DNA of 63,816 nucleotides, the filler included, from Collodictyon triciliatum (taxonomy: Eukaryota): NCBI GenBank assembly GCA_043381765.1. It is 4 parts of 4 records of this genome, joined end to end, with 100 filler letters (N's around TTAATTAATTAA, not from the genome) between each part and the next. Parts side by side here need not be neighbours in the genome. Positions count along the whole stretch, not along the records: positions 1 to 29,030 come from JBHJMP010000885.1; 3 more parts are not named here. One strand, written 5' to 3'. Under the pieces are notes generated by a model, which saw only the letters and a program-made list of their open reading frames with translations, did no database searches and was not told the DNA's origin. Shown piece by piece: positions 12,556 to 47,644 of this stretch (position 1 is the first letter of the stretch; each line of letters opens with the position of its first letter). Position numbers and translations under genes: made by a program.

Positions 12556-14106
12556 ATGGACCAAACGACCTCCCCGACTTGCATCTACGTTTTGGCTTCA
12601 TGTGCCCATCTAGATAATGCTCTCCCGAAGGACAAGAGGATACATAGCGACTCTCTATGCAACGCACCGAGTGCCGGGGCTCTCCGTGAAAATAAGTCCC
12701 CTAACCTCACCATTGTGATTGAATCCTTGAACAGCGATACAAGCCTGAAAATCCAACTGGCTGATTCCTCGGGGAAAGCGATACCACACGGAATGTTTCT
12801 AAGGAACGGACGTAGCACCTCGGTAAGATGTAGCTTTCCTTTCTTTTTCTTCGTTTTTTTTTCTCCTTTTCGGATTGAGGATCAAATCAGCCACAGCCTA
12901 AAACCAAAAACTGACATACCTTCATATAAACAGCAGATATGTTCTAATATACTTCCGCACACACCGAACTTCCATGTCATCAAGAACTTTGGCATCTGCA
13001 AAACCAGTTGCGATGTCTATAAGTGCAATATTCGTGACTTGAGCGCAGGCGAAGTCGGACTTTTTCATCTGAAGGTTATCGTGTTGAACCTATATGATGA
13101 GCGAGTATTCTACGTGATGCCACATTATTCGTTTTCCAAGCTTGATTCAAAATCCAAAGCCATCTCAGGTCTCCGCCAAATGCGGGAGAGTTTTCTTGAT
13201 AGCTTCAATTTCCCTTACACTACTCGCATCACGGACGACCCACGCAAACCTCAGAGTCACCGCATCCATCCCAACAAACGCAATAATCGCTCAAGTCTAT
13301 GTGTCTGCTATGAGTTTGGTGAGTTTGATATTAAAATGTATTTTTTTCTTGCTGTAAATGATGTATTTCCTAACCAAACCAGACTCACACTTTCTCATGA
13401 CCACATACTTAACCGTACCGAGTGCAGAATCCTATGTACCAAGCTCACAGCTACCCACAGCAACGGTACAATCAGCTTTCACGAGCGCAGAATCGCACAT
13501 CCCAGCCTCATTTGCAGAGAATTCTGATACAACGACCAACCTTCTATCGCCACATTCGAACCTTTTTTCTCAGGTGAGCAAGAGTCTGATTCCTTCGAAG
13601 GATTGCCTCAGTGTGAACAAAACCACTTCATCTCGCGCGACCTTGCCATGCGCTTAACTGAAGAATCCTCTACCAGCTCTATAAGCGGTTCGTTGGAGCC
13701 TTTCCACCATGACCACCTCGCCCAGGATGCCAACCCAGCCGATAATCCGGAATTAGCACCTTATACGGAAGATACAAAATTTTATACAATGGGTGAGATA
13801 TATGAATTGTTAAACAATCAAAACTATCATGATAGCGAATTGATTCCGGTATAGCCGTATAGAACTACGTTCCATTCAACAAGCATACTATATATGCTGT
13901 GTTTTGCAGTCTATCCAGCTCATAACCATACCCGCAACCCCCCTTGCTTCACTCTATACCCATCACTCCAATCCAGGCAACCGCAACCTGGTTGGACGTA
14001 CGATGAAAATCCACCTTGCTTTCTCCCCCACCCGCCATCATCTACCACACCTCCAGGACGCTTGGCATGCTCAGCGCCCATCGTCAACAAAGAGATTGAG
14101 GAATGA
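12556..14106 (+). CDS. Hypothetical protein: beta-rich N-terminal domain resembling Runt/p53-like DNA-binding folds, plus S/T/P-rich C-terminus (3' end uncertain)
   Basis: 323-aa ORF with an in-frame GT-AG intron at about 12823-12936. Motifs LRENKSPNLTIV, FLRNG, NFGICKTS, GLFHLKVIV, TTRITDDPRKPQSHR. Downstream exons are low complexity. Confidence 0.55.
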
Positions 14107-14777
14107 TAATAATAATAATAAAAATAAAAAAAAAACAAATAGAAGAGGATTTTCGGAGAGCCTCAAGCCATTAGTCGATATTATTCACCCATAACCGTGA
14201 GTGCGCGTAGAAACAAGTGAAAGGAATTAAGCCATTTGCAAAGCCTACTTGGATTTTTTTTTTCATAGAATATGGCATGTATATCGGGAATTGTGGGGTG
14301 TTGAGCGTGTTTTACTGTATTCGGTTCTTCAGAAAAAGGAAAAAGGTGTCGGAGCTCCGTGTGAGATGGGGCGACGTGAGCGGCATTCTTTATTTTTCGA
14401 GACGGCTGTGGTTGGGGGTTGGATTCGTAAGGTGGTTTATCGCTGCATTTTTCGGCGGTGCGAAGCTCCCATCCTTTTGGGATATGTCTGACTCTTGAAA
14501 AAATAAAGTATGTTTCCATGTTGAAAGTATGTTGAAATATCACCTAGCCCTCCTAGGTTCACAAATCATTGGTGGGGAGGGTACATCCGCCTTTCCGTTT
14601 TGCTGTCAAGACCCGGATGACGTCAAAAGCTCCACATAACAAAGTAATACGCGAATGCGTTCTGGTGTCAAACACAGGCTTTGAGACTCCGCCCAGCAGC
14701 AGAGACGTGCTATATTTATTTTCCGCAAAAAGGAACATAGTGAATCATGCCAAAATTGATTAAAATCCACTTTTGTC

Positions 14778-17700
14778 ATGAATAAGCAGCGTCCTCATCC
14801 GGCCATTCACGGTACACTGCCACACAGACCACAGCGCCAGATGCACATAAATGGGCTTTTTTTAGTTGTGGTTTTAATCGGGCTGTCCGTGCTTTGGGAA
14901 GTCAAAGCATCGCTCAGAACACTCGCCGTAAAACAAGAGACAGGCGAGGCCACCACCAACCTTATCAGCTGCGCACACTCGCCAAGTTTCATCAAAGAGA
15001 CAGTCATCCAAACACTTTTTTCTTTCCATTGCCCACTGATCATTTATTCCGTCGTTCAATATTCTTTATACTTTTTTTTAGAAGAAAAGCGCTTGTTGGC
15101 TGCTGTTGCAAAAGACACGAGGTGGAATGACGCCGGGCAAAGAAACCCGAGAGGAGATCGATCGGGTGAGTAGTTTGGGTGGGAACCCCGCATTGAAGCC
15201 AGAGAGGCAAACTAAGTTGTGTGTAGTCGAAATCATTACTTGAGCGTCGCACAGAGACAATATGAGAAGAATGAAGGAACAGGACTCCCACTAAAGAAAC
15301 CGCTTCGCCAAAGGCACTTCTTAGATGGGTCAACTACCAGCTGGGCAAGATAGAATTGAAGGCAAACAACATATCCTCGGACATGGAGGACGGCTTCTTT
15401 TTGATAATGCTCATGGACATCGTCACAAAAGAGCCCGTCAAAGACTATCACTCGCGGCTGTTTGCGTGAGCACTTATCCTGCTCCATTGAAAATCTACCG
15501 TAGCAAACTGTGTACTTGTAGTGCTCTAAAGGATGTATCATGAAGTCTGTGGATTGCACTGCCACAGAACAAATTCCTGTTTTTCCACGGCCAATTCTAT
15601 TTCTGCTTCTATTTCCATATTCTAACTCTAAGTCTATTTTTTTTTTAACAGAGACTCGCCCATACAAAACGAGATTTTGGTTCAAGAAAACCAACAGACG
15701 TTTCGTGTAAATCTTGCTTCAAGACTTGGAGAGCACCAAAGCGAGGAATCTTTATTCGTCATGACAAAGGAGTTTAAAGGTGCCATTTTTATTATGTTGC
15801 ATGCGCCATATGATCGATTGAATCCGCCGAGTCTCTGCTCGTGACATACCAGTGGATTGATTCTGCGTATCGGTGATGATTCGCAAATGAATAGATATTG
15901 TAGAGCCTACGTTATGGTTTCTGATTGGAAAAAGCATTCAAAGAAAGGATAAATTTTCGGTTGGTGGATTCTAAAACAAAACAACGTAACATATCACTTT
16001 GAGTAAATGACTCCAGTATTATTAATTTATTTTTTTTTGCGTTCCTCTTCAAGTCAGTAATACTCATCTGTCCACAATTACCAGGAGACCGGCCCAGCTC
16101 GGTATTCAGAAGCAAGAAAGCTCTTTGAAATTGTAAAGGCACCTTTTCCTTTCGATGGTAATTACGCATTTCCTTGTGACAATTCTCTTATCCTTGAGTT
16201 AAGTGCGCTTATGGGAGTGAGCTGATATTTTCCACCCTTCGAAAAGATTTCGAACTTGAGGAAAAAGGGACTATCGTATTGATTCGAACTTGCATTCTCC
16301 TTGATAAGGTATGGCCGAGAATATCTCCTCCTTCATATCATTCTGCATCCGTTTCTATTGATTGGTTATAACTGAATTTTAGATGGAAGCTATCCGTAAT
16401 GAGCAAAAGGAAAAGAGACTACAGAAATGGATTCCTGCACCACAGCGCTATACGACCCCGACACCCTTAGATGTGAAAATATTCGACCAATGTGTTTTGC
16501 GAGTCTTCTTATCATCGACCTTTCGAGATATGCAAAAGGAGCGTGACCATTTTTTCAAGCACGGAGCCGTCGAGTAGAATTCAAATCGATGAATGCATAT
16601 TAAACTAATTTGCTGACCAGATTGTATGGTATTTAGCTTCGAATTTTGCACACACGTATTTTGATAAGTAATTCCTTAATTTTAATTACTCTAGACTAAA
16701 GAAGCTTGCAAAAGCAAGGGGCATCGAACTCGTATTTATCGACCTGCGCTGGGGACTCACGTCTGAGGACAGTAGCGAGGGATGGGCAAGTTATCTGTTT
16801 TGTTATCCCTTTATTTCTGCTTCTTTTCCCTATCGTTCTTTTCAAATATGCAAAAAGGAATGTGATGTTTATTCTCTACCCTCATTCAAATGATGAAGCA
16901 AACATGCGCGCAGGTGGTTATTCGGTGTTTGGATTCTATCAGCAAGTGTCCTTACTTTGTATGCTCTCTGGGAGCTCGGTACGGATGGATTCCTGACCAA
17001 AGCAAAACAGAGTTGAACAAGCATCAAAGATTGGAGGAGCTTCAAAAGACTAAACTAGAGGCCACAATCAACGACTTGTGGGTGGAATGGCGCTCAGAGA
17101 CGAACAAACGCTTTCCTTTTATCGATGGCATCCCGGGACTGAGTGTAACAGAGTATGAGGTATTGCGAAAACAAAGAAGAAAGAATTGCTACCGTCCGTA
17201 ATATCCTGATCAAACCATTTTATTCCGGTGATTGTAGATACAATATGCAGCCTTGATTGATAAGCCTGTTTGCAGCCGAGCATTCTTTTACTTCCGGGAC
17301 GAGGAATACGCAGTTGCAAATGCAGAGGATGAGAAAGAAAGAACGCTATTCAGGGCTGAGAATGAAGAGAGTGTAAGCCATCCAATCAGCCTAGGATATG
17401 CTTGATGACTTCTGAACAAATTAAATTAGCATGTGATCAAATACTTTTTTTTAAAAAAAACACACACACACACAAAATAATGCAAGGCAACAACTATCAT
17501 CTAGAGAAAGAGACAAAACGAACTCAAGGCTAAAGTAGAGACAAAGTATGGTCATGTAGTATACCAAGGGGCCAAGCAGTACTCTGATTTAGTCACAAAC
17601 CACCTTAGTTACGCAATCAACAGAGACTTCTCTAACCGCAAAGTCCTTAATGATTGATTGGAAAGCACCCATATGTATATTGAATACCTTAATGCAAGAC

Positions 17701-20700
17701 TGCCTGATGAGTTCTTTGAATGATTCCTTTATTTCAACTTACTATCCAGGTGAGAGACCCGGAAGACCAAGCTCAGCATCAATTCAAGATGCACCGGTTA
17801 GTAGGATTTGGTGGAAGGAAAGAGCTCCTTAAGCGTATCGTAGACGAGGTTTTCTTTGTCTTTTTTTCCCCTTTTTTCCTTTTTTCTTTCTTTTGTCATA
17901 TGATGTAATGGGAACGAAACCCTTTACAACTCGAAGGATTTATATTCTTGTTAAAGACTTTGAATTAGAAAGCATCGATATCTCTATGCGATCTACTTAA
18001 TGTGATTAAAATTTTTTCGAGTGCAGACCTTCGAGCAGTTGGATGAAGATAACAAAAAAATCACTGTTTTGGCAGCTGAATCAGGAATAGGAAAGTCGTC
18101 GTTGATGGCTGCTACTGTTCGAGACTTAGAAGGACTGACCCATCCGAACCTCCATGTATTCTACCATTTTGTTGGATGTACAAATCTCAGCAATTATGTT
18201 GAAAGGTAAGACAGTCAGAGAAACAACAATGTTCTTTGCGTTAAATGAATGGTTGCAACACGAAGCTTCTTCAGCGTGCAGCACATAACAGAAGCGAATC
18301 CTCTTGAATACATCGATAGAGAAAACACACAAAATAGGCAGTTAATCGTGTCATTTTGATGATATTTTTCTTCGTATGTTAGTATCTCGATACGATTCTG
18401 GGGATTGGTATCAAGTGCTGAGAATTCACTTGCTGGAGAAGGGAGAGGGGAAGCAGGTGAGTATTTCAAAAGGCGAAGAAGAGAACTCTTCACAAGAAAT
18501 AGCCATAGATATGAGAGGCCCTTCTGATACGCGAATGTGATAAATAATGGAATTACATATTGTTTAGTATTTAAATGAGTCAAAATAACATACTCTTAAT
18601 GATTTGGCAGAATTTGCAAAAGAGGGAATCCAGGGACTGTTTAATGCTCTATCTGAAAAGAACAGGTGTGTCCAACCACAAGTTCTAAACCTAATATGCA
18701 TGGCTCAATTCTTGAAGAATATTTTTAATTGTCTAGTTCGTCTTTGAATGATTCTAAAGAAGGATTGAAATTTATCTGTACCATACAGAACCAAGAGTAC
18801 CCGATTTGTATTTATGGTTGACGCCATTAATCAAATCTTGCCGTCCCAAGACACACCGGTTCCTCATCTCCTTAACTGGTTTCCCAAAAAAGCACCAAAA
18901 AACATCGCCTTGATAGTCTCAACTATCGACACCCACCAGTCATGCCAGGTTCGAGCTAGAAAGCAACTGAAAACTTATATTTTTAAATCATCTGATAGCT
19001 TGGGCCATTTTTTTTCAAGTTTCTTACTCGATGGATGCAGGTTGCCAAAAGCAGTGGGCTAGATGTCATTCCGGTGACAAAGTTGACTGAGGGAGAGATT
19101 CTGGAGAGCGCAACATCATTCTTGCATAGATATGACAAAACCTTAAGTGAAGTACAATTGAGGATGATACTTGCAGACCAGCAAGACACAGGTATATTTT
19201 GATTTTGATTTTGATTTTGATTTTGATTTTGATTTTGATTTTGATTTTGATTTTGATTTTGATTTTGATTTTGATTTTGATTTTGATTTTGATTTTGATT
19301 TTGATTTTGATAATATCTTTCCCCTCTGTTTTATTCTCAATTGCCACTTTATTTGGTTTTCTTACCATTCTTAAAATTTCCCATTTCACTTATTTTCTCA
19401 ATCCTGAATGCTCATCGCTATTTCCACAAGGCCATCCGTTATACTTGCGTATTGTGCTGGACGAGATACGAGTTTTTGGAGTGTTTGAAAGACTTGAAGA
19501 GGAGCTCAACACCCTATTGTCCACCTCGGGCGTCATCGACCTCTACACACTGATCATTAATCGATGGCAGCAAAAATACAACATCAAAGGTATTGAATAA
19601 ACCAATCCATTCACATTTCCGATGGTGAAACAGGAATACCATGGCATGAATCTGTGTAAGATGTAGGCTGTACTTTATTCGCTTCTTTACAATCCATTAT
19701 TGCAAGCCAAGGCATTGAAGCTCATTCTGCCAAAATACAGGGAAGCCCATTGTGGAATCATCCATGAAAGTACTGTACGTCTCTAGAATAGGAATGAACG
19801 AAGGGGACCTGGATAAATATGTTGAAAGCTATGTGGGTCAGGAATTTGAACTAGCGGAATGGTTTGCCTCTACTCAAATCCAAAAGTATTTTCTCATTTT
19901 TACTTTCATTAACCTATTATCCTCATAGGAAATCCTTTTTCTTTACACTCGTAGAGTCCTTGTTTGTTCGGAATGGAAGGTTTTTCTTTTCTTCAAATAC
20001 CGAAGTGAAAAGATGTTTCTAAAATGTTGGTTGAAAAAAAAAAGATATCTGTATTTTGGATGAATTCACCATGGCAATCAGGTGGTGAACACTGACCAAA
20101 CTTTGACGCATATATATTGCAATAGGTACATGTATTTCCACCAGTTGCTTTTGGAAACAACAAACAACTATTTCTTCGAAAGACCCGAATCCAAAATCCA
20201 GACGCACAAGGATTACGGGATGTGGATGTATGGACAATATGCTGACGAAGCCGATGTCGATGAGGAGCTTGTCGCGGAAATATGCTACCAATTAATGCAA
20301 GGCGAATGCTATAACCTGCTTGTCGAATACTTGAAAAATGACCACGTTAGCCGTCCTTTCTTTCTTATTTGCTAATTGAATATATATATTCTTCGTGATT
20401 TTTGTATTAGATGTCAAAGTCATGAAATGTGCAGGTTGTTATTCACATGCTTGGTGGAAGATATCGGTACGAGTTCTTTGGTTGCTGGAGAACCATCAAT
20501 TTGAAAGGGGTAGCCAACTACAAAGACGTATACATCAACAAAGTCAAGGTATCCATCCCATATGATTTAGCATTACAATGTAATGATGGGTGAAAAACGA
20601 TTAAAAAAAAAAAAAAAGGGCACACTCTTCGATGGTTTTGTAACATTTTTGTACTTGTTGAAAACAGTCCCTCGATAAAGTTGGAGATATGCTGGTTGAC

Positions 20701-23700
20701 TTTTTTCTGGAATGTTTCGAAAACTCATATCTTTCATCAGCCATTGTCCAACGCATAGCCAAGAGACGCACCGAGGGTGACATTTCCTTTCCTTTCCTTT
20801 CCTTTCCTTTCCTTTCCTTTCCTTTCCTTTCCTTTCCTTTCCTTTCCTTTCCTTTCCTTTCCTTTCCTTTCCTTTCCTTTCCTTTCCTTTCCTTTCCTTT
20901 CTTTTTTTCTTTTTTTCTTTTTTTCTTTTTTTCTTTTTGTTTTCTTCTTTTCTTGTTTTCTTGTTTCAGTTTTCTTTTTTTTCTTTTTTTAAAAAAAGTG
21001 GCATCATTTTAAGATTTTCTAAATTGATTCTGACCTCCATCTACGCGAAACAGATTCGAAGTTCTCAGACTATCAAACGCTTGGACGTGTTTACAAAAAT
21101 TTGCAAAGGTGAAAATAGCTAACATGAACAATCTTTGAGTGCAATTATCGGTTGATGCTAATAATATCACTTCATGCACCAGCTGGGATGAGTCGATGCA
21201 ATATTTTCAGAAATGCATGAGTATGAGGCGAGGCACATGCCGAGAAGACCTGGACTACATCGCACCCATCCTCGACGAGATTGGATACATATACCAAAAA
21301 GAAAACAGGCATTCAAATACATTGAACTACCAGACATAGTTTGATTATGTTGACCTGCCATACTATTATCATGATTAATTCTTTCTCATTTGAGATAAAT
21401 AAGACAAAATAACATTCCAACACGTGGCAGATTGGAAGATGCTCTGTCGGAGTTTAGAAAGTCCTATGATATTCGAATGCAACTATATGGCGACCAAGAC
21501 TTGCTTATCGCTCAATCAAGAGACCACTTTGGAGATATTTATTTGATTCAAAACAAGTATGTCAAGCTGAGATATGGACACCAGTCAATATTCCATCCAG
21601 GTGAGAATATAGAATAAACCACCTTTATGATATGACAGAGCGGAAGAAGCTGTAGCAGAGTATAAGGCATCGATGGAAATTCGCTCTAAGCGAGTAGGAA
21701 GTGATCACCCGTTGATGGCAACATCGCTTCAAAACCTTGGGCATGTATGCGTCTCAAAGAAAAAGTAAGGCATCTAAGTAAAAGTCGTTTATCAATTTTA
21801 AAAACTCTAATTATGCCAGTCGTCTTTTTGTTAACAATCACTTGGCTTCTATTCCTTAGGTACGACGACTCTTTGGAATACTACGAAAGAGCTAAAAGTC
21901 TTCTAGAAAAGACATTTGGGCAAAGACACCCGTCTGTCGCTATGGCGATGTTGAATAGTGCCGAAGTGCATATCACGACAGGAAAGTAATAAATAATAAA
22001 TCGGAATGAATGCTAATATCATTCAAAGAACTATATTCAATGATCTAAAATCATAACCGAAGGCCAGAATAATTACTTTTTGTCCGAATCTATGAATTAT
22101 TACCGAAGTCAGTTGGAATATCATCTTTGTATTCACTTCTTTTTTCTCAACCAGGAAAATGATGGCCTTAGCGTTACTTAATCAATCTTTGTCGATTTTC
22201 ATCGAAACAATGGGAGAAAACCACCCTAATGTCGTGCTGATATATGAAAAAATCGGAGACATTAATCACGACCTCAAAGAGTAGGATTTGGCTTTTATTC
22301 TTTTAATTCATGCACATATGGATAGAAAAAGAAGCTTACTTCAATTGGATGAAATTTTGACTAGCCTAGTATATATTGGATTTTGTAGATTCAATGTTTC
22401 CTTGGACTCCTACACAAAGACGTTAGAAATCAGAAAGAGAACAATAGGAAACGAGCACCCAGACTATGCAAAATCTCTCGAAAATGTTGGAAGGACAAAC
22501 TTTGAGTTGAAGAGGTAATAATTCTTTTGTTTTATTTGTTTTTAATTAGATTATATAATATTGTGTTACAATTGTTGTAAGGGAATCCTGAGCATGCTAC
22601 ATCTCGTTATTTGCTCAATTTTCTGGTTATTAAAATGGATTTTCTTTTTTTTTTAAAAAAAAAATCACAGAACAGACCAAGTGTTTGACCACTTCCAAGC
22701 GGCGTCGAATATAAGGTCATTAACAAAAACGATATCTTCTTTGAGTTTTGGCCCTCAAATAGATTGCATCACAAGATTTATGAGGGACAAGAAGGGATTT
22801 AAAACTGTCATTCAAAATTACAATGCGCTGATCAACATTTTTGTTCAACGGCATACTCTGGATTTTATCGGAATCAGAAACTCTTGTCTAGAAATTGATG
22901 CTATATTTAGCGAGCAAAATATGCACAAAGAGGCTTTAGCTTTCTGGGATGAGATGAAAGTAAGGTTTGAGAAAGGTCTTGGATGGATTCACGAAAGAAC
23001 CCTCCATGCTTACGATAGACTAGCGTGTCATTCCGGTAAGATTGGATTGAACAAAGAAGCATTTGAGTTTTCCAGATTGGAGTCTTTTCTTAAGGAAAAT
23101 ATTCAAGATTGCCCTGCTGACTTTGAATATAGTCGTGATGCTGTAGTGGATGCTTTGTTTGGGATAGTTTATACTTCAAGGACTGATGAAAGCAAAAGTA
23201 AAGCCGCATCTGAAGCAATCACTCTTCTGAATTTTATGAGAATCTCATTCAAGGGCATGAACCTATCTAACATCCGAATTCCCTACGCAAATATGAGATT
23301 TTCAGTTGTTGATGGCACAGATTTTACCGGTGCAGACCTTGAAGGGGTTAATTTTGGAAACTCGTTGCTAGGAGGGGTCATATTGAACAAAGCTAATATG
23401 CATAACTCTAACGTCGGGTTGTGCAATAATGTATTAACCGGACATCTTGAATCAATTAATAGCATGTGTCACATAATAGGACCAAACGGAGAACGATTGC
23501 TGGCCTCCGGAAGCATGGACAAAACGGTGAGGATTTGGGATATTGCGCTGGGGAGAGCCATTATGAAGCTTGAAGGTCACTCAGACCACGTAAACAGCAT
23601 ATGTCTTACCACGGGGCCGAATAGAGAAAAGTGGCTCGTTTCGGGTAGTAGAGATAAGACCATCATTATTTGGGATATTTTGACGGGCGAGAATCTTCGG

Positions 23701-24495
23701 GTGATTGAAGGCCATTCGGGGTACGTGACAAGTGTGTGCAGTTTTCATGGACCCGAAGGAGACACCCTTATTGTGTCTGGGAGTGAAGACAAAACCATAC
23801 GCATATGGAACCCCATTAGCGGGATGTTGTTGAAATCTTTCGAAACTGTGACACAAAACGTCTACGCAGTGACCAGTATAAATGGACGCGCTGGACAAAC
23901 ATGGATAGCATCAGCGGGACATGATAAGACCATCAGAATTTGGGACTTTGGGACAGGAAACCAACTTCGAGTTTTACGAGGGCACGGAAACTACATCTGG
24001 AGCATATGTTCCATGCAAGGGCCAAACGGGGAGTTATGGTTGGCATCTGCCAGTAATGATAAGACCATAAGAGTTTGGGATGTTGAGAGTGGAGGCCAGA
24101 TTCGTATCTTACAAAATCATACAAACTGGGTAAATACCATATGTAGACTGCCTGGTCAGAACGGAGACACTTGGATTGCGTCTGGCAGTCATGACAAAAC
24201 CGTTCGGCTTTGGAGCGTCACCACTGGGTGCGAGATCAGGATTTATGCTGATTTACCCAGTCCTGTTTACAGCTTATGCCACATACAAGGAAGTAATGGA
24301 GATTCATGGGTAGCTTCTGGAGGACATGATAGCACAATACACCTTTGGGACTATGAATTCAGTGTCACACCAATCGACCAGGCAGAATGGATTGCACCTA
24401 CAGGGGGTATCCAGATACGCGACACTCAGAATCTGAGCGGCTTTAACAAAAGTGTTCTTGGGTCGTTCGGTCTTTCTGAAACAGAGGCCCACTAG
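14778..24495 (+). CDS. NLR-like STAND NTPase: calponin-homology-like domain, DUF4062, NACHT-type P-loop NTPase (NPHP3/TEP1-like), 42-aa TPRs, pentapeptide repeats, 7 WD40 repeats; about 30 introns; start uncertain
   Basis: In-frame spliced model: LLRWVNYQL...SSDMEDGFFLIMLM (CH, 15317-15465); RVFLSSTFRDMQKERD...IDLRWG...CPYFVCSLGARYGWIP (DUF4062); AESGIGKSS (Walker A); FVFMVDAINQ (Walker B); GHPLYLR; six TPR exons 21183-22514; terminal exon 22671-24495 with GADLEGVNFG and GH...SGS.DKTIRIWD repeats. 16383-24495 is well supported; the join to the CH exons is less so. Confidence 0.88.
19196..19311. repeat. (GATTTT)n microsatellite immediately after a splice donor
   Basis: Perfect hexanucleotide run in an intron of the NACHT gene. 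Confidence 0.95.
20783..20901. repeat. (TTTCC)n microsatellite, intronic
   Basis: Perfect pentanucleotide run after the donor at 20777. Confidence 0.95.
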
Positions 24496-38763: not shown

Positions 38764-41700
38764 ATGGCTGAAAATGCCGATGCGAGCACTGTTCGGGTTG
38801 TCTGTCGCTTCCGCCCACAAAATCAGAAGGAGATAGAAAACAAGGGTGAGATGATTGCCAGAATCGATCGACAAGCAAACTCAGTCTACTTGGAGGTGCT
38901 TACATCTGCTTCTATGTTTACTATTAAATTAAATTAAACCAAATTAAATCAAATCAAATCAAATCATATTATATTACATTATTTGCGTTTTATTTACCTA
39001 TTTACCGCCTGTTGGGTCAGTCAAGCCGCGATACACCCCACAAGTTTTGTTTTGACGACATATTGACGGAAGAGTGTTCCCAACAAACAGTTTTTGAGCG
39101 CGCAGCCCTTCCTGTTGCTAAGTGTACACACTCTCAATCATTTTTGATACTAGATCATTATCCCACAATCCTTCGTTTGCAGATTTGAACTACAATAGTA
39201 TATATACTATGACGAATCACCTCTGATAGTCATTCCGCCATTATCATAGCCAATATTTCTATTTGCATTTTTCTTTGTAAAAGTACAAACCTTTTCATAA
39301 TGATGTAGCTGTTCTCCAGGGATATAACGGAACCATATTTGCATATGGCCAAACATCAAGCNNNNNNNNNNNNNNNNNNNNNNNNNNNNNNNNNNNNNNN
39401 NNNNNNNNNNNNNNNNNNNNNNNNNNNNNNNNNNNNNNNNNNNNNNNNNNNNNNNNNNNNNNNNNNNNNNNNNNNNNNNNNNNNNNNNNNNNNNNNNNNN
39501 NNNNNNNNNNNNNNNNNNNNNNNNNNNNNNNNNNNNNNNNNNNNNNNNNNNNNNNNNNNNNNNNNNNNNNNNNNNNNNNNNNNNNNNNNNNNNNNNNNNN
39601 NNNNNNNNNNNNNNNNNNNNNNNNNNNNNNNNNNNNNNNNNNNNNNNNNNNNNNNNNNNNNNNNNNNNNNNNNNNNNNNNNNNNNNNNNNNNNNNNNNNN
39701 NNNNNNNNNNNNNNNNNNNNNNNNNNNNNNNNNNNNNNNNNNNNNNNNNNNNNNNNNNNNNNNNNNNNNNNNNNNNNNNNNNNNNNNNNNNNNNNNNNNA
39801 GATTCACGACCTACTCGACCGTATCATTTATTATGAACAACACGGCAGATCTAAGCCATCAACCATATCTTCAACTTTCAATAAAAAAAAACCTCGATGT
39901 ATTAAATAGCTTACGCCAGCCAATGGCGAGACTCTAAATTTTTCAATCAAAAATATAGCCAGCAAAAACAACCTACAAATCAGAGAGGAAAAATCACGTG
40001 GCATATGGGTGGCGGGTCTTACCGAGCACTATGTGTCATCAGCCGCTGATGTATTGACTTGGATGAAGTTTGGTCTTAAAAATAGAGCAAAAGCTGCGAC
40101 AGGTATTCTTTCATATTTTCTGTAAAGCTACAATGGCGTCACATGCGAACATTTGCATTTGTTTTTGGATATATATAATATTGCTGGTTGTTTCATACCG
40201 AGCTCTCAAGCAAAATTGTAATATTTTTCTGAAAAAAAAAAGGTATGAATGCAGACAGTTCGAGAAGTCACAGGTATCCAGTTCACTCTATGAATTACAT
40301 CTGAATCAAAGCTGACCTATCTCAACATCTAATGAAAATTAAATAAATACTACAAAATTCGACTTTCTGTTAATGAAAAAGTCTTCTGTCACTTACTGTG
40401 GAGCAAAAGAACTTGAATGATTTGCGCGTTAAGGTTGGTAAGCTATTTCTGGTCGACTTAGCTGGTTCTGAGAAGGTAATTTATTAATTAATTTATTAAT
40501 TTTTTTTAAAAAAAAGCTGTGGCTTCTTTTTCAACCAATTTTTTTAAGGCATTCATGTTTTGTCTGACTTTTTTCCCTCTTTTTTTTCATAATTCATTTG
40601 GTTAGATTTCCAAGTCACTTGTCGAGGGTATTCATTTGGATGAAGTTCGAGCCATCAATACAAGCTTGCATGTGTTAGGCAAAGTGATACACGCACTCAC
40701 TGACCCAAAGGTTTGCTATCGACAGCACATCGGACTTATCCTATCATGTTCGCGCTTCACAGAGCTTACTGACCGAAATTGGGCAGATGACATACATTCC
40801 CTACCGCGACTCGAAACTGACCCGCATTTTGCAAGAATCTCTGGGAGGAAATGCCAAAACTACATTGATTATCTGTTGCTCACCTAGCAGGTATTTCTAC
40901 ATTCTATTTCTCTTTTATCTTATCCTTGTATCCCCATTCATCCTTTTTCGTTATGGAGGAAAAATTCTGTATGAAAGTACCCATTTTTTTTACCATTTGT
41001 AAACCTGACTTTATTTAATCATGTTAAAATTAGTTACAATCTGCCTGAAACAATGTCAACTTTGCGATTCGGTGAAAGGTTTTCATATATTTATTTATTA
41101 CCAATTTAAAAGACAATTATTTTCAATTCACTCCTATACACACACACACACACAAACATATCTTTAACTCAACCATGTCTGCTTTTTGAAAAAAATAATC
41201 CTATTCCCTCGTCTGATAATAATAATAATAATTATAACCATAGGGCCAAGTCAATCAAGAACAAACCAAAAGTCAACGAAGAGAAAAGTGTTGCTGAGCT
41301 TAAGTTGATAATCAATGACAAAGACAAAGAAATTACAAAGCTCAAGCAAATCATATCGGGGCTTAGAGATGAAATTGGGTTGCTAAGACAAGGAAAAAAC
41401 GGTCTGAACCATATCATTTGAAATTATTATTGCTGCTCTAATTGAACCTGTAAATGATTATTTCCCTTAACTTACATTTAAAAATGGTCTATGGCAATTC
41501 ATCTCACCTATAGTGCCTCCATCTGCATCTGAGTTAGATGCTGAGAGTGGTGCAGATGCTGTTGGTGATGGTGAATTAGTGCCGACAAAGTTTGCTAACG
41601 ATGACCCGCTTCTCGAAACGCAAAGACAGGAGCAGATCGAATTCCTCCAAGGCATTCCATCACATATATATATATATATCACATACATATATATCTATGA

Positions 41701-47544: not shown

Positions 47545-47644
47545 NNNNNNNNNNNNNNNNNNNNNNNNNNNNNNNNNNNNNNNNNNNNTTAATTAATTAA
47601 NNNNNNNNNNNNNNNNNNNNNNNNNNNNNNNNNNNNNNNNNNNN
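47545..47644. other. Artificial scaffold-concatenation linker
   Basis: 44N-TTAATTAATTAA-44N. Confidence 0.97.

Follow-up and report, generated by a model that had tools for sequence, protein, structure and literature searches.

The + strand region 15297–24495 of the analysed window, a 63,816-nucleotide stretch of Collodictyon triciliatum DNA (filler included; assembly GCA_043381765.1), is predicted to hold one gene with 30 or more exons and 1807 codons. The order of modules in the predicted product is as follows: a CH domain, a linker of about 60 aa, DUF4062/NIR, a NACHT-type STAND NTPase with a helical region, six TPR_12 units, a helical stretch, a pentapeptide beta-helix and a seven-bladed WD40 propeller. 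The original prediction had proposed that one NLR-like STAND gene couples an N-terminal CH domain to C-terminal repeat arrays of two kinds, and all the domains it claimed were found where it had located them. Based on established STAND/NLR and NIR behaviour, we suggest that the gene encodes an NLR-like switch in which the repeats would sense, the NACHT part would oligomerise, NIR would hydrolyse NAD+ and CH would localise the receptor or act as an extra sensor. We consider this reading fairly probable. The novelty so far remains an architectural observation.

Relatives in Diphylleia rotans

Along its whole length, the window model runs collinear with P0004, a 2619-aa transcript-derived protein of Diphylleia rotans with its domains in the order CH, DUF4062, NACHT, TPR_12 (six units), pentapeptide repeats, WD40 propeller. 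The identities to P0004 were 40/99 for CH, 18/62 for the linker, 105/155 for DUF4062 and 397/677 for the NACHT/helical part; in the C-terminal half they were 101/280 (TPR), 81/200 (second linker), 24/60 (pentapeptide) and 111/257 (WD40). In a second paralogue transcript, P0002, CH is joined to DUF4062-NACHT, and a third one, P0014, contains TPR, pentapeptide and WD40 in one ORF. P0002 and P0004 are ORFs of two different Trinity genes. The predicted fusion of CH to DUF4062-NACHT within one gene is thus present in single frames of P0002 and P0004, and the continuation of the TPR array into pentapeptide and WD40 repeats in single frames of P0004 and P0014. Since these transcripts join the corresponding domains, the CH exons and the WD40 exon are assigned to the same gene.

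At least ten paralogous clusters were found in one transcriptome, and the blade number across paralogues ranged from 7 to 19. Among 165 sequences, TPR and WD40 occurred together only in the model, P0004, P0154 and P0014, that is, in one subfamily, which agrees with the earlier statement that DUF4062-NACHT proteins usually end in one or the other. In 42 other relatives, DUF4062 (42/42), NACHT (41/42) and TPR_12 (37/42) were found, and WD40 was not among the 25 commonest families. The full domain combination was found in no paper, nor in family members outside its own subfamily.

Six relatives with long N-terminal extensions were scanned; four had FBA before DUF4062, and two of these four also had Malectin. 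Because the sugar-binding domains Malectin and FBA lie there in relatives, the N-terminal slot appears to be a variable targeting or second-sensor position and not an effector.

Exon Structure and Gene Boundaries

The 30-exon model has an open frame of 1807 aa with no stop or frameshift. Of its introns, 27 are of the GT-AG and 2 of the GC-AG type, with AG acceptors throughout. The corrected boundaries of the small upstream exons (see below) are homology-guided and placed at canonical sites, and the splice choice there is partly steered by similarity to the relatives.

A candidate 5′ exon was placed at 15081–15165 (+), with a strong T-rich acceptor, a GTGAGT donor and a phase matching that of exon 15297. 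Two alternatives are an ORF from the ATG at 14778 reading through to 15165, and an ATG exon, 15127–15169, with a weak GTAGTT donor. No Pfam families were found in the + strand ORFs of 13844–15243, and the N-termini of P0004 and P0002 gave no tblastn match. At the other end, a short C-terminal tail with a TAG stop occupies 24385–24495 (+); the final 45–50 tail residues, conserved between P0004 and P0014, were not found in the window.

It is very unlikely that the architecture is real in the family while this copy is a silent or decaying paralogue making no protein. Decay would fit the two non-GT donors, of which GCATTC at 21309 departs strongly from the GC-donor consensus, as well as the 5′ exon and start codon, for which there are only candidates, and the tail, whose conserved end was not found. 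Against it, 1807 codons in 30 exons run open, every motif examined is intact, and the end of P0002 coincides exactly with the GCATTC-donor intron, as expected if this intron position is conserved and the intron sometimes retained.

CH Domain and Linker

The first CH exon (15297–15465, +), which covers the first half of the domain, matched Pfam CH at positions 5–48 (E 1.4e-5; as half a domain it reached 25.7 bits, the cut-off being 26), the PDB CH1 domains of filamin, MACF1 and beta-spectrin (E 3e-4 to 5e-3) and, by tblastn, P0004 (51% identity, E 1.9e-13). Its score was 19.8 bits on filamin-B CH1 versus 1.0 bit on filamin-B CH2. The corresponding regions of the relatives pass the PF00307 cut-off, with 34.1 bits in P0002 and 46.2 bits in P0004 (two stretches), and the P0002 CH, over its full length, could be matched with the CH1 domains of plectin, alpha-actinin and MACF1 (E 1e-5 to 2e-4). 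Judging by these similarities, the CH domain is closest to CH1 of actin-binding proteins, and it would probably either localise the receptor or act as an extra sensor. The originally proposed role, a receptor that would be tethered to the cytoskeleton or guard it, has this nearness to CH1 as its only support. Single CH domains in other proteins have many partners or none.

Pfam gave no match to a second CH in the + strand ORFs of 13844–15243. The second CH stretch of P0004 lies N-terminal of, and separated from, the shared CH, and the N-terminal CH-like stretch of this protein had no tblastn match. Since one CH was detected in the window, with no CH2 after it, the tandem CH1-CH2 arrangement is not found here. 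In this respect the product differs from plectin, alpha-actinin, filamin, MACF1 and spectrin, whose CH1 domains are the most similar to it but are each adjacent to a second CH.

The CH domain continues in exons 15652–15779 (+), placed by AG/GT sites, phase and the joint alignment described below, and 15895–15959 (+), where it ends with a D-I-V...L-W motif. The linker is encoded by exons 16085–16157 (+), with a GTAATT donor and a P-F-x-F-D motif aligned with P0004 and P0002, and 16247–16308 (+), whose phase fits 16157 and 16383 and whose length equals that of the relatives. The in-frame splicing of the upstream exons into 16383, proposed originally, holds, while three of the five small-exon boundaries had to be corrected: 15895–15959 replaces 15904–15960 (acceptor 15895 outscores 15904 against the relatives), 16085–16157 replaces 16085–16138, and 16247–16308 replaces 16204–16309.

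Aligned jointly, the four small exons scored 94 against P0004 (shuffles 26.2 ± 4.6; z 14.6) and 68 against P0002 (z 9.0), and in both comparisons 0/2000 shuffles reached the score. Taken one by one, the small exons had no significance with a two-sequence HMM. The score of exon 16085–16157 was reached by 1/1000 shuffles against P0004 and by 398/1000 against P0002; that of exon 16247–16308 was reached by 0/1000 against P0004.

These data bear on whether two or three adjacent genes (CH; DUF4062-NACHT-TPR; pentapeptide-WD40) were wrongly merged, the fused relatives being assembly chimeras. Exon 16383 opens exactly with an in-frame ATG, the last exon contains a Met 42 codons from its start, and the small linker exons are singly without significance, as separate genes might have it. 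However, the CH-to-DUF4062 linker is conserved, the CH-DUF4062 fusion occurs in two Trinity genes and the TPR-pentapeptide-WD40 fusion likewise in two, the genome agrees with this order, its phases being compatible and its frame free of stops, and the last exon begins partway through a TPR unit and shares the phase of the six exons before it. We therefore regard a merger as extremely improbable. The ATG at 16383 aligns to internal residues of the relatives and would allow a CH-less isoform of the single gene.

In another reading, which we consider improbable, CH is an integrated decoy or sensor, which would be bound or modified by pathogen factors directed at CH-domain actin-binding proteins, so that the NACHT switch is triggered from there instead of from the C-terminal repeats. 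Plant NLRs carry integrated domains, and here the ligand-binding Malectin and FBA occupy the same slot in relatives, with NIR, the true effector, lying between this slot and the NTPase. Nevertheless, CH shows moderate conservation among the paralogues (40/99 and 35/101 identical), and the protein has plenty of sensor surface in its three C-terminal repeat modules already.

DUF4062/NIR Domain and NTPase

Two 2026 preprints describe DUF4062 ("NIR") as an NADase that is TIR-like, uses a catalytic Glu, is activated by oligomerisation and sits N-terminal in eukaryotic NLR-like proteins, e.g., TEP1 and NWD1 (bioRxiv 10.64898/2026.05.01.722283, 10.64898/2026.09.04.749371). Its recognition as an NADase effector common to bacterial anti-phage systems and the eukaryotic NLR-like proteins TEP1, NWD1/2 and TTC41 is recent. 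Because of this description, an NAD+-degrading output would be central to the likely mechanism.

In the window, DUF4062 lies N-terminal of the NTPase and starts in exon 16383–16573 (+; Pfam E 3e-4; tblastn to P0002, 52% identity, E 2.9e-15). It continues in exon 16695–16785 (+), followed by a GC-AG intron with the donor GCAAGT, and in exon 16914–17159 (+; Pfam E 2.9e-6, 27.8 bits versus a cut-off of 24.7; 66% identity to P0002). The Pfam scores of the relatives were 42.9 bits (P0002) and 40.4 bits (P0004), and the best PDB match of P0002 was the NIR domain of TEP1 (11gz_A, E 3.4e-15). In the motif S-[VI]-T-E-x-E, Ser and the last Glu were invariant in 152/152 aligned sequences and the first Glu was present in 131/152. 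The window keeps it as S-V-T-E-Y-E at the end of the third exon (17142–17159). The PDB alignments end before the invariant Glu, so its pairing with E1008 of TEP1 is putative.

Four + strand exons (17238–17372, 17505–17642, 17750–17848 and 18027–18205) lead from the end of NIR to the P-loop, as supported by tblastn collinearity, junctions and P-loop families. The NTPase continues in 18383–18456, 18611–18665, 18789–18948 and 19041–19191 (+), the acceptor choice between 18789 and 18798 being ambiguous. Walker A (G-I-G-K-S) was located at 18084–18098 and Walker B (F-V-F-M-V-D-A) at 18805–18825. The P-loop exon alone gave weak matches to NPHP3_N, nSTAND1 and NACHT, all below the cut-offs (only 15.1 bits for NACHT). 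The NTPase of P0002 reached 32.0 bits for nSTAND1 (cut-off 27.1) and, as a borderline match, 27.4 bits for NACHT (cut-off 26.7). There was no solved NLR among the PDB sequence matches.

The helical/winged-helix region was placed by tblastn and junctions in seven + strand exons (19431–19589, 19741–19861, 19929–19979, 20126–20345, 20435–20548, 20668–20776 and 21054–21108), with 37–77% identity to P0004, P0002 and P0014. No LRR family was present in the Pfam results for the window exons, P0002, P0004 and P0014, taken over the best 25 families for P0004, P0014 and the last exon. An LRR sensor as in canonical animal and plant NLRs (NACHT or NB-ARC with LRR) was thus not found among these families.

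C-Terminal Repeats

The TPR array is encoded by six + strand exons of 126 nt (42 codons) each, all in phase 2 and aligned to P0004 and P0014: 21183–21308 (with the GC donor GCATTC), 21431–21556, 21639–21764, 21860–21985, 22155–22280 and 22389–22514. Pfam TPR_12 was found in five of the six (E 3e-6 to 1.4e-4), the first giving only E 0.18. The predicted passage from the last of these exons into 22671 is in order: the junction 22514 to 22671 is phase-compatible, and the TPR unit continues across it.

The last, intron-free exon starts with this continuation and about 188 aa of helical repeats (22671–23235, +), for which the AF2 model gave nine helices with pLDDT mostly 40–80. The sole longer-protein match of this start was a bacterial pentapeptide protein. 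The helical part is followed by a pentapeptide-repeat beta-helix of about 10 units (23242–23427, +; PF00805, 33.1 bits versus a cut-off of 20.2, E 3.9e-8), with a beta bridge at every fifth residue over residues 197–247 of the exon in the AF2 model. The WD40 blades, seven in number and repeating every 45 aa exactly, occupy 23440–24384 (+; Pfam 188.8 bits, E 3.5e-57, seven stretches), and the AF2 model shows a seven-bladed propeller of 28 strands with pLDDT of about 90. Rapid repeat homogenisation occurs in some fungal receptors. Here there is no sign of it, because the blades are only 27–51% identical pairwise.

The lack of hypervariability in the blades would also suit a protein outside immunity, namely a nephrocystin-3-like scaffold of the cytoskeleton or flagellum, in which TPR and WD40 dock proteins, CH anchors the complex to flagellar-root microtubules or actin, and NIR is structural or regulatory and no death effector. 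The NPHP3-group Pfam families (TPR_NPHP3, NPHP3_N, NPHP3_hel and the NPHP3 domain) recur among the relatives, CH is a cytoskeleton-associated fold, and the NPHP3-like TPR and NIR signatures, as such, are equally compatible with such a scaffold. We nevertheless consider it rather unlikely: the family-invariant Glu of the NADase domain is kept, and the many paralogues in one species, with swapped N-terminal domains and 7 to 19 blades, look more like receptors than a housekeeping scaffold.

Proposed Mechanism

By analogy with established STAND/NLR and NIR proteins, we suggest the following pathway for the NLR-like switch. At rest, the C-terminal repeat modules would keep the NTPase closed. A ligand on the TPR, pentapeptide or WD40 surfaces would permit nucleotide-dependent oligomerisation of NACHT. 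[quoted passage not shown] More speculatively, the CH domain, being like the actin-binding CH1, may bring the receptor to actin filaments (or microtubules) of the cytoskeleton. Since a lone CH binds weakly, filament avidity would perhaps arise only after oligomerisation. The position of CH ahead of the effector points to a cellular location or a guarded target.

A bolder proposal, to which we assign a low probability, would make the protein an NLR-like receptor that degrades NAD+ and is connected to the cytoskeleton. Its CH1-type domain would be either an integrated bait reporting attack on actin-binding proteins or a filament-binding part whose multivalency arises only once NACHT has oligomerised. 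If so, NAD+ destruction would be triggered or localised at actin structures, e.g., the phagocytic groove, and one receptor with three serial repeat modules could integrate several ligands. It would also mean that the "integrated-domain" logic of NLRs exists outside plants, in a deep-branching phagotrophic protist, coupled to an NIR effector.

Comparison with Known Systems

In NWD1/NWD2 and TEP1, too, DUF4062/NIR immediately precedes an NTPase of the NACHT type and its helical region, and a WD40 propeller forms the C-terminus; the conserved Glu motif is putatively common to them and the protein studied here. By the available descriptions, they differ in having no CH, no TPR between the NTPase and WD40, and no pentapeptide repeats, and the N-terminus of TEP1 carries a TROVE module instead of CH. 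The bacterial Avs2, Vulcan, Vesta and Swarozyc are described as having the same NIR effector domain, and the logic of Avs2 (N-terminal NADase, STAND NTPase, C-terminal sensor repeats) is alike; these systems, however, are prokaryotic, single-exon, anti-phage and, as described, without CH.

Regular WD40 propellers and pentapeptide repeats are shared with cyanobacterial proteins, which lack the STAND NTPase, NIR and CH. This lead (Atlas) had a score of 0.80, which is below the level of evidence for kinship, with Pentapeptide in 48% of the members of the top cluster.

The nearest neighbours in a representative search were of the DUF4062-NACHT-TPR type. NPHP3/TTC41 and the wide family of this type in protists, animals and bacteria have the same NIR, NACHT and TPR_12 arrays but stop after the TPRs, whereas the window protein adds the helical stretch, pentapeptide and WD40 repeats and the preceding CH. 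Its sensor region would thus be a series of TPR, pentapeptide and WD40, while each of the relatives examined has a single type of repeat. The position ahead of NIR appears to be exchangeable, with CH here and Malectin/FBA in other lineages, a refinement of the common view that places the effector N-terminally in the NIR family.

Gene Organization and Domain Content

The gene at 15297–24495 (+) encodes, in this order, a CH domain, DUF4062 (also named NIR), NACHT, TPR_12 repeats, pentapeptide repeats and WD40 repeats, with the conserved motifs of these domains. The window is eukaryotic and intron-rich, with short exons, introns of 67–277 nt and microsatellites in several introns. Long microsatellites lie in two introns of this gene (19196–19311 and about 20780–20990). 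The gene model was built by picking GT/GC...AG pairs for an open frame and the best fit to relatives. It comprises 30 exons and 1807 residues without a stop; 27 donors are GT and two are GC, and all acceptors are AG.

Based on Pfam scans of single exons, every domain of the original prediction was recovered. The CH profile matched exon 15297–15465 over profile positions 5–48 (E = 1.4e-5; 25.7 bits against a cut-off of 26). In the PDB, this exon matched CH1 of filamin A/B, MACF1 and beta-spectrin (E from 3e-4 to 5e-3), and it scored 19.8 bits on filamin-B CH1 versus 1.0 bit on CH2; a word-indexed protein search with it gave no match. DUF4062 was found on 16383–16573 (E = 3e-4) and 16914–17159 (E = 2.9e-6). 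The P-loop NTPase families NPHP3_N (E = 8e-4), nSTAND1 and NACHT matched 18027–18205, all under their cut-offs with this exon alone. TPR_12 was detected on five of the six 42-codon exons in 21183–22514 (E from 3e-6 to 1.4e-4), the first exon reaching E = 0.18 only. The pentapeptide profile scored 33.1 bits (cut-off 20.2), and the terminal ORF of 612 codons contained seven WD40 stretches (E = 3.5e-57).

Upstream of 16383, five small exons had been proposed to splice in frame. The coordinates of the first two (15297–15465 and 15652–15779) proved exact, and the boundaries of the other three were corrected. For the third exon, a start at 15895, with an added D-I-V that agrees with the CH consensus, is more likely, and the end lies at 15959. 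For the fourth exon, no usable donor is present at 16138, and the corrected exon is 16085–16157 with the donor GTAATT. The fifth exon was changed to 16247–16308; its length then equals that in both relatives, P0002 and P0004 (Diphylleia rotans transcript ORFs), and the P-F-x-F-D motif is aligned. The four small exons, joined, scored 94 against P0004 (shuffles, 26.2 ± 4.6) and 68 against P0002, values reached by none of 2000 shuffles in either case, the splice sites having been chosen partly by similarity to these relatives. A two-sequence HMM of the CH domain and linker was significant for CH exon 1 only (iE = 1.2e-17). None of the four small exons was significant singly with this HMM, exons 2 and 5 appearing in the right order with iE of 9.5 and 3.4; codon-usage scoring of the small exons was uninformative. 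It should be noted that exon 16383 opens with an ATG aligned to internal residues of the relatives, and a CH-less isoform may start there.

Exon 15297 depends on a preceding exon for one base. Candidates for it (+) are 15081–15165, which combines a strong acceptor with a GTGAGT donor; a read-through ORF from ATG 14778, the originally predicted start, to 15165; and ATG 15127–15169, with a weak donor. These candidates showed no Pfam family and no similarity to the N-termini of relatives, and neither a second CH domain further upstream nor a conserved 5′ exon turned up in searches. At the 3′ end, the last 45–50 residues of the C-terminal tail are conserved between P0004 and P0014 (a further Diphylleia ORF), and a search for this tail downstream of 24495 gave nothing at E < 1 in the window.

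Transcript contigs of three runs from other organisms, compared with 13500–19190, yielded seven pieces of 33–43 nt with 90–99% likeness and no joints. An unexpressed paralogue is a rival explanation for the locus.

Homologues in Diphylleia rotans

A search with exon 16914–17159 led to P0002, a 1245-aa transcript ORF with 66% identity to the exon and with recorded Pfam domains CH, DUF4062, NACHT and nSTAND1. Our own Pfam scan of P0002 gave 34.1 bits for CH, 42.9 for DUF4062, 32.0 for nSTAND1 and 27.4 for NACHT, and its CH domain aligned from end to end with CH1 of plectin, alpha-actinin-4 and MACF1 (E from 1e-5 to 2e-4). By tblastn, P0002 was collinear with the window from 15317 (CH) to 21309 (first TPR). 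When the part of P0002 from CH to its end was used in an exhaustive HMMER search, 9532 relatives were retrieved at E ≤ 0.001; P0004 ranked first, aligned from query residue 5. This 2619-aa ORF contains CH (46.2 bits in two stretches), DUF4062, TPR_12 and 16 Pfam WD40 stretches, together with pentapeptide repeats detected by a local HMM. P0014 is a fragment of 1219 aa that covers the helical region, the TPR and pentapeptide repeats and then seven WD40 blades.

The model is alignable to P0004 over its whole length, with identical/aligned residues of 40/99 in CH, 18/62 in the linker, 105/155 in DUF4062, 397/677 in NACHT and the helical region, 101/280 in TPR, 81/200 in the second linker, 24/60 in the pentapeptide repeats and 111/257 in WD40.

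The proposal that the CH exons belong to the same gene as DUF4062-NACHT is thus upheld by P0002 and P0004, which carry CH and DUF4062 in single ORFs, and by the collinear window. Adjacent genes wrongly merged into one would be the alternative, but the same fusions are present in Diphylleia rotans transcripts and the order in the window is identical, making a merger very unlikely. Look-ups of the nine nearest proteins, plus two others, placed them all among EukProt Trinity ORFs of this species that stem from different Trinity genes, so the domain fusions occur in independent transcripts. Given these and the same order in the genome window, an assembly chimera is also very unlikely.

Predicted NIR Effector Domain

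According to the available portions of two preprints (bioRxiv 10.64898/2026.05.01.722283 and 10.64898/2026.09.04.749371), NIR is a TIR-like NADase whose catalytic Glu is E1008 in human TEP1. Its activity increases with concentration, which the authors ascribe to oligomerisation, and several bacterial anti-phage systems use it as their effector, an Avs2 STAND protein among them. NIR occupies the N-terminus in most NIR-containing NLR-like proteins of eukaryotes (NWD1, NWD2, TEP1, TTC41), with NPHP3 just below threshold (same preprints, portions available). An NPHP3-like non-immune scaffold is a rival explanation for the gene studied here.

The best solved-structure match of P0002 was the TEP1 NIR domain (11gz_A, E = 3.4e-15). 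In the motif S-[VI]-T-E-x-E, the Ser and the last Glu are invariant in all 152 aligned family sequences, and the window keeps this motif, with a candidate catalytic Glu, at 17142–17159. The PDB alignments of NIR stop before the motif, and the counterpart of TEP1 E1008 among its Glu residues is a candidate only.

TPR Array and Terminal Exon

The six TPR exons (21183–22514) are each exactly 126 nt long, i.e., 42 codons or one TPR_12 unit; all are in phase 2, and their mutual DNA identity is 37–48%. This is a textbook exon-per-repeat structure. The last exon, from 22671, has the phase of the TPR exons, enters the repeat unit where they do and carries on as a TPR-like half unit, and both P0004 and P0014 read uninterrupted through the TPR-to-WD40 junction. 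The predicted joining of the last TPR exon to 22671 is thus supported.

The last exon was modelled with AlphaFold2 from an alignment of three sequences (mean pLDDT 74). The model showed nine helices in residues 1–188 with low to medium confidence, a beta bridge at each fifth residue in 197–247, corresponding to a pentapeptide helix, and 28 strands forming seven blades in residues 254–560 (pLDDT about 90). A word-indexed search with residues 1–270 of this exon matched, among longer proteins, a bacterial pentapeptide protein only (E = 1.6e-4). The best score in the ESM Atlas search was 0.80, which is lead level only.

The 1825 nt of coding sequence in 22671–24495 contain no intron, versus 29 introns in the approximately 3600 coding nt before it, a density of about one per 124 nt; the Poisson probability of such a gap is roughly 4e-7. 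This points either to 3′-biased intron loss or to acquisition of the helical-pentapeptide-WD40 block as an intron-free unit. Since the phase is shared with the TPR exons, intron loss is favoured.

GC-AG Introns

Of the two GC donors (+), the one following 16785, GCAAGT, conforms to the consensus; the one following 21308 is GCATTC. The ORF of P0002 closes with Arg and a stop precisely where this second GC-AG junction lies, as would result from retaining a canonical intron at a conserved position. P0002 is thus probably a retained-intron isoform, in which CH-NIR-NACHT would be produced without sensor repeats. In one 54-nt contig of another organism, the match ends at 16786 and 13 letters like the next exon follow, a break that fits a GC-AG intron there in a piece too short to count.

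Family Context

Using local iterated HMMs on 165 sequences (164 retrieved proteins and the model), WD40 was found in five. TPR and WD40 occurred together in only four of the 165, namely the model, P0004, its cluster mate P0154 and P0014 (P0110 has WD40 alone). From the local HMMs, only the WD40 and co-occurrence counts are used here, since many proteins in which they scored neither repeat do carry TPR_12 by Pfam. In 42 further relatives, Pfam detected DUF4062 in 42, NACHT in 41 and TPR_12 in 37; neither WD40 nor CH was among their 25 commonest families (each matched by at least five members). A family-specific CH HMM, which would miss other CH kinds, matched only the model, P0002, P0004 and P0154. 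By local HMMs, P0004 has 19 WD40 units versus seven in the window and P0014; therefore, the repeat number differs about threefold among paralogues.

The wider family includes proteins of Cyanophora, Parvularia, a crinoid, an Anaerolineaceae MAG and metagenomes. A metagenome scan revealed three intron-free, distant DUF4062-NACHT-TPR loci (22–30% identity) with no CH. Among six relatives with long N-terminal extensions, four have FBA before DUF4062 and two of those also Malectin; the slot N-terminal of NIR is thus exchangeable and elsewhere holds ligand-binding domains. The four FBA-DUF4062-NACHT-TPR proteins are P0047, P0094, P0071 and P0144 (Parvularia, Cyanophora, a crinoid and a Logan contig), and Malectin, like FBA a sugar-binding domain, also lies N-terminal of DUF4062 in P0047 and P0094. 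The available portions of 10.64898/2026.05.01.722283 and 10.64898/2026.09.04.749371 contain no mention of an FBA/Malectin-DUF4062 architecture.

The NIR-NACHT family and its NADase are already known. The word "Calponin" has no occurrences in two DUF4062 papers; studies combining CH and NACHT seem unrelated by title and the start of the abstract, and the papers found on NACHT with WD40, TPR and pentapeptide repeats concern bacterial conflict systems. In the portions of the literature covered, no published description was found of CH before NIR or of the serial order TPR, pentapeptide, WD40. The EukProt hits in Table S5 of 10.64898/2026.09.04.749371 may include these Diphylleia proteins.

Proposed Mechanism

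Based on knowledge of STAND and NIR proteins, we suggest that the repeats would sense a ligand and autoinhibit the protein, that the NACHT domain would then oligomerise, and that the clustered NIR domains would hydrolyse NAD+. More speculatively, the CH domain could direct the receptor to filaments, with avidity possibly gained upon oligomerisation; alternatively, it might act as an integrated bait.

Other Features of the Stretch

A single 1207-codon ORF at 58796–62419 (−) encodes a microbial-type PARG (poly-ADP-ribose glycohydrolase) catalytic domain (E = 4.1e-8) and has a long, Cys/His-rich C-terminal half. This ADP-ribose-related ORF lies 34 kb from the putative NADase gene along the joined stretch, in a different record. 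Nine runs of N, 1818 letters in all, interrupt the stretch, and three of them form pairs of 44-N blocks separated by 12 bases; the runs lie at 2303–2923, 29031–29130, 39362–39799, 47545–47644, 53342–53836 and 56069–56168; some cut through apparent coding exons. Further ORFs match a CorA-like Mg2+ transporter at 9007–9603 (−; E = 4.9e-37), an NSD-type PHD finger at 30181–30642 (−; E = 9.4e-8) and an O-fucosyltransferase at 36782–37630 (−; E = 2e-10). By eye only, exons at about 2900–8500 appear aconitase-like, and an exon at about 39281 resembles a kinesin motor P-loop.
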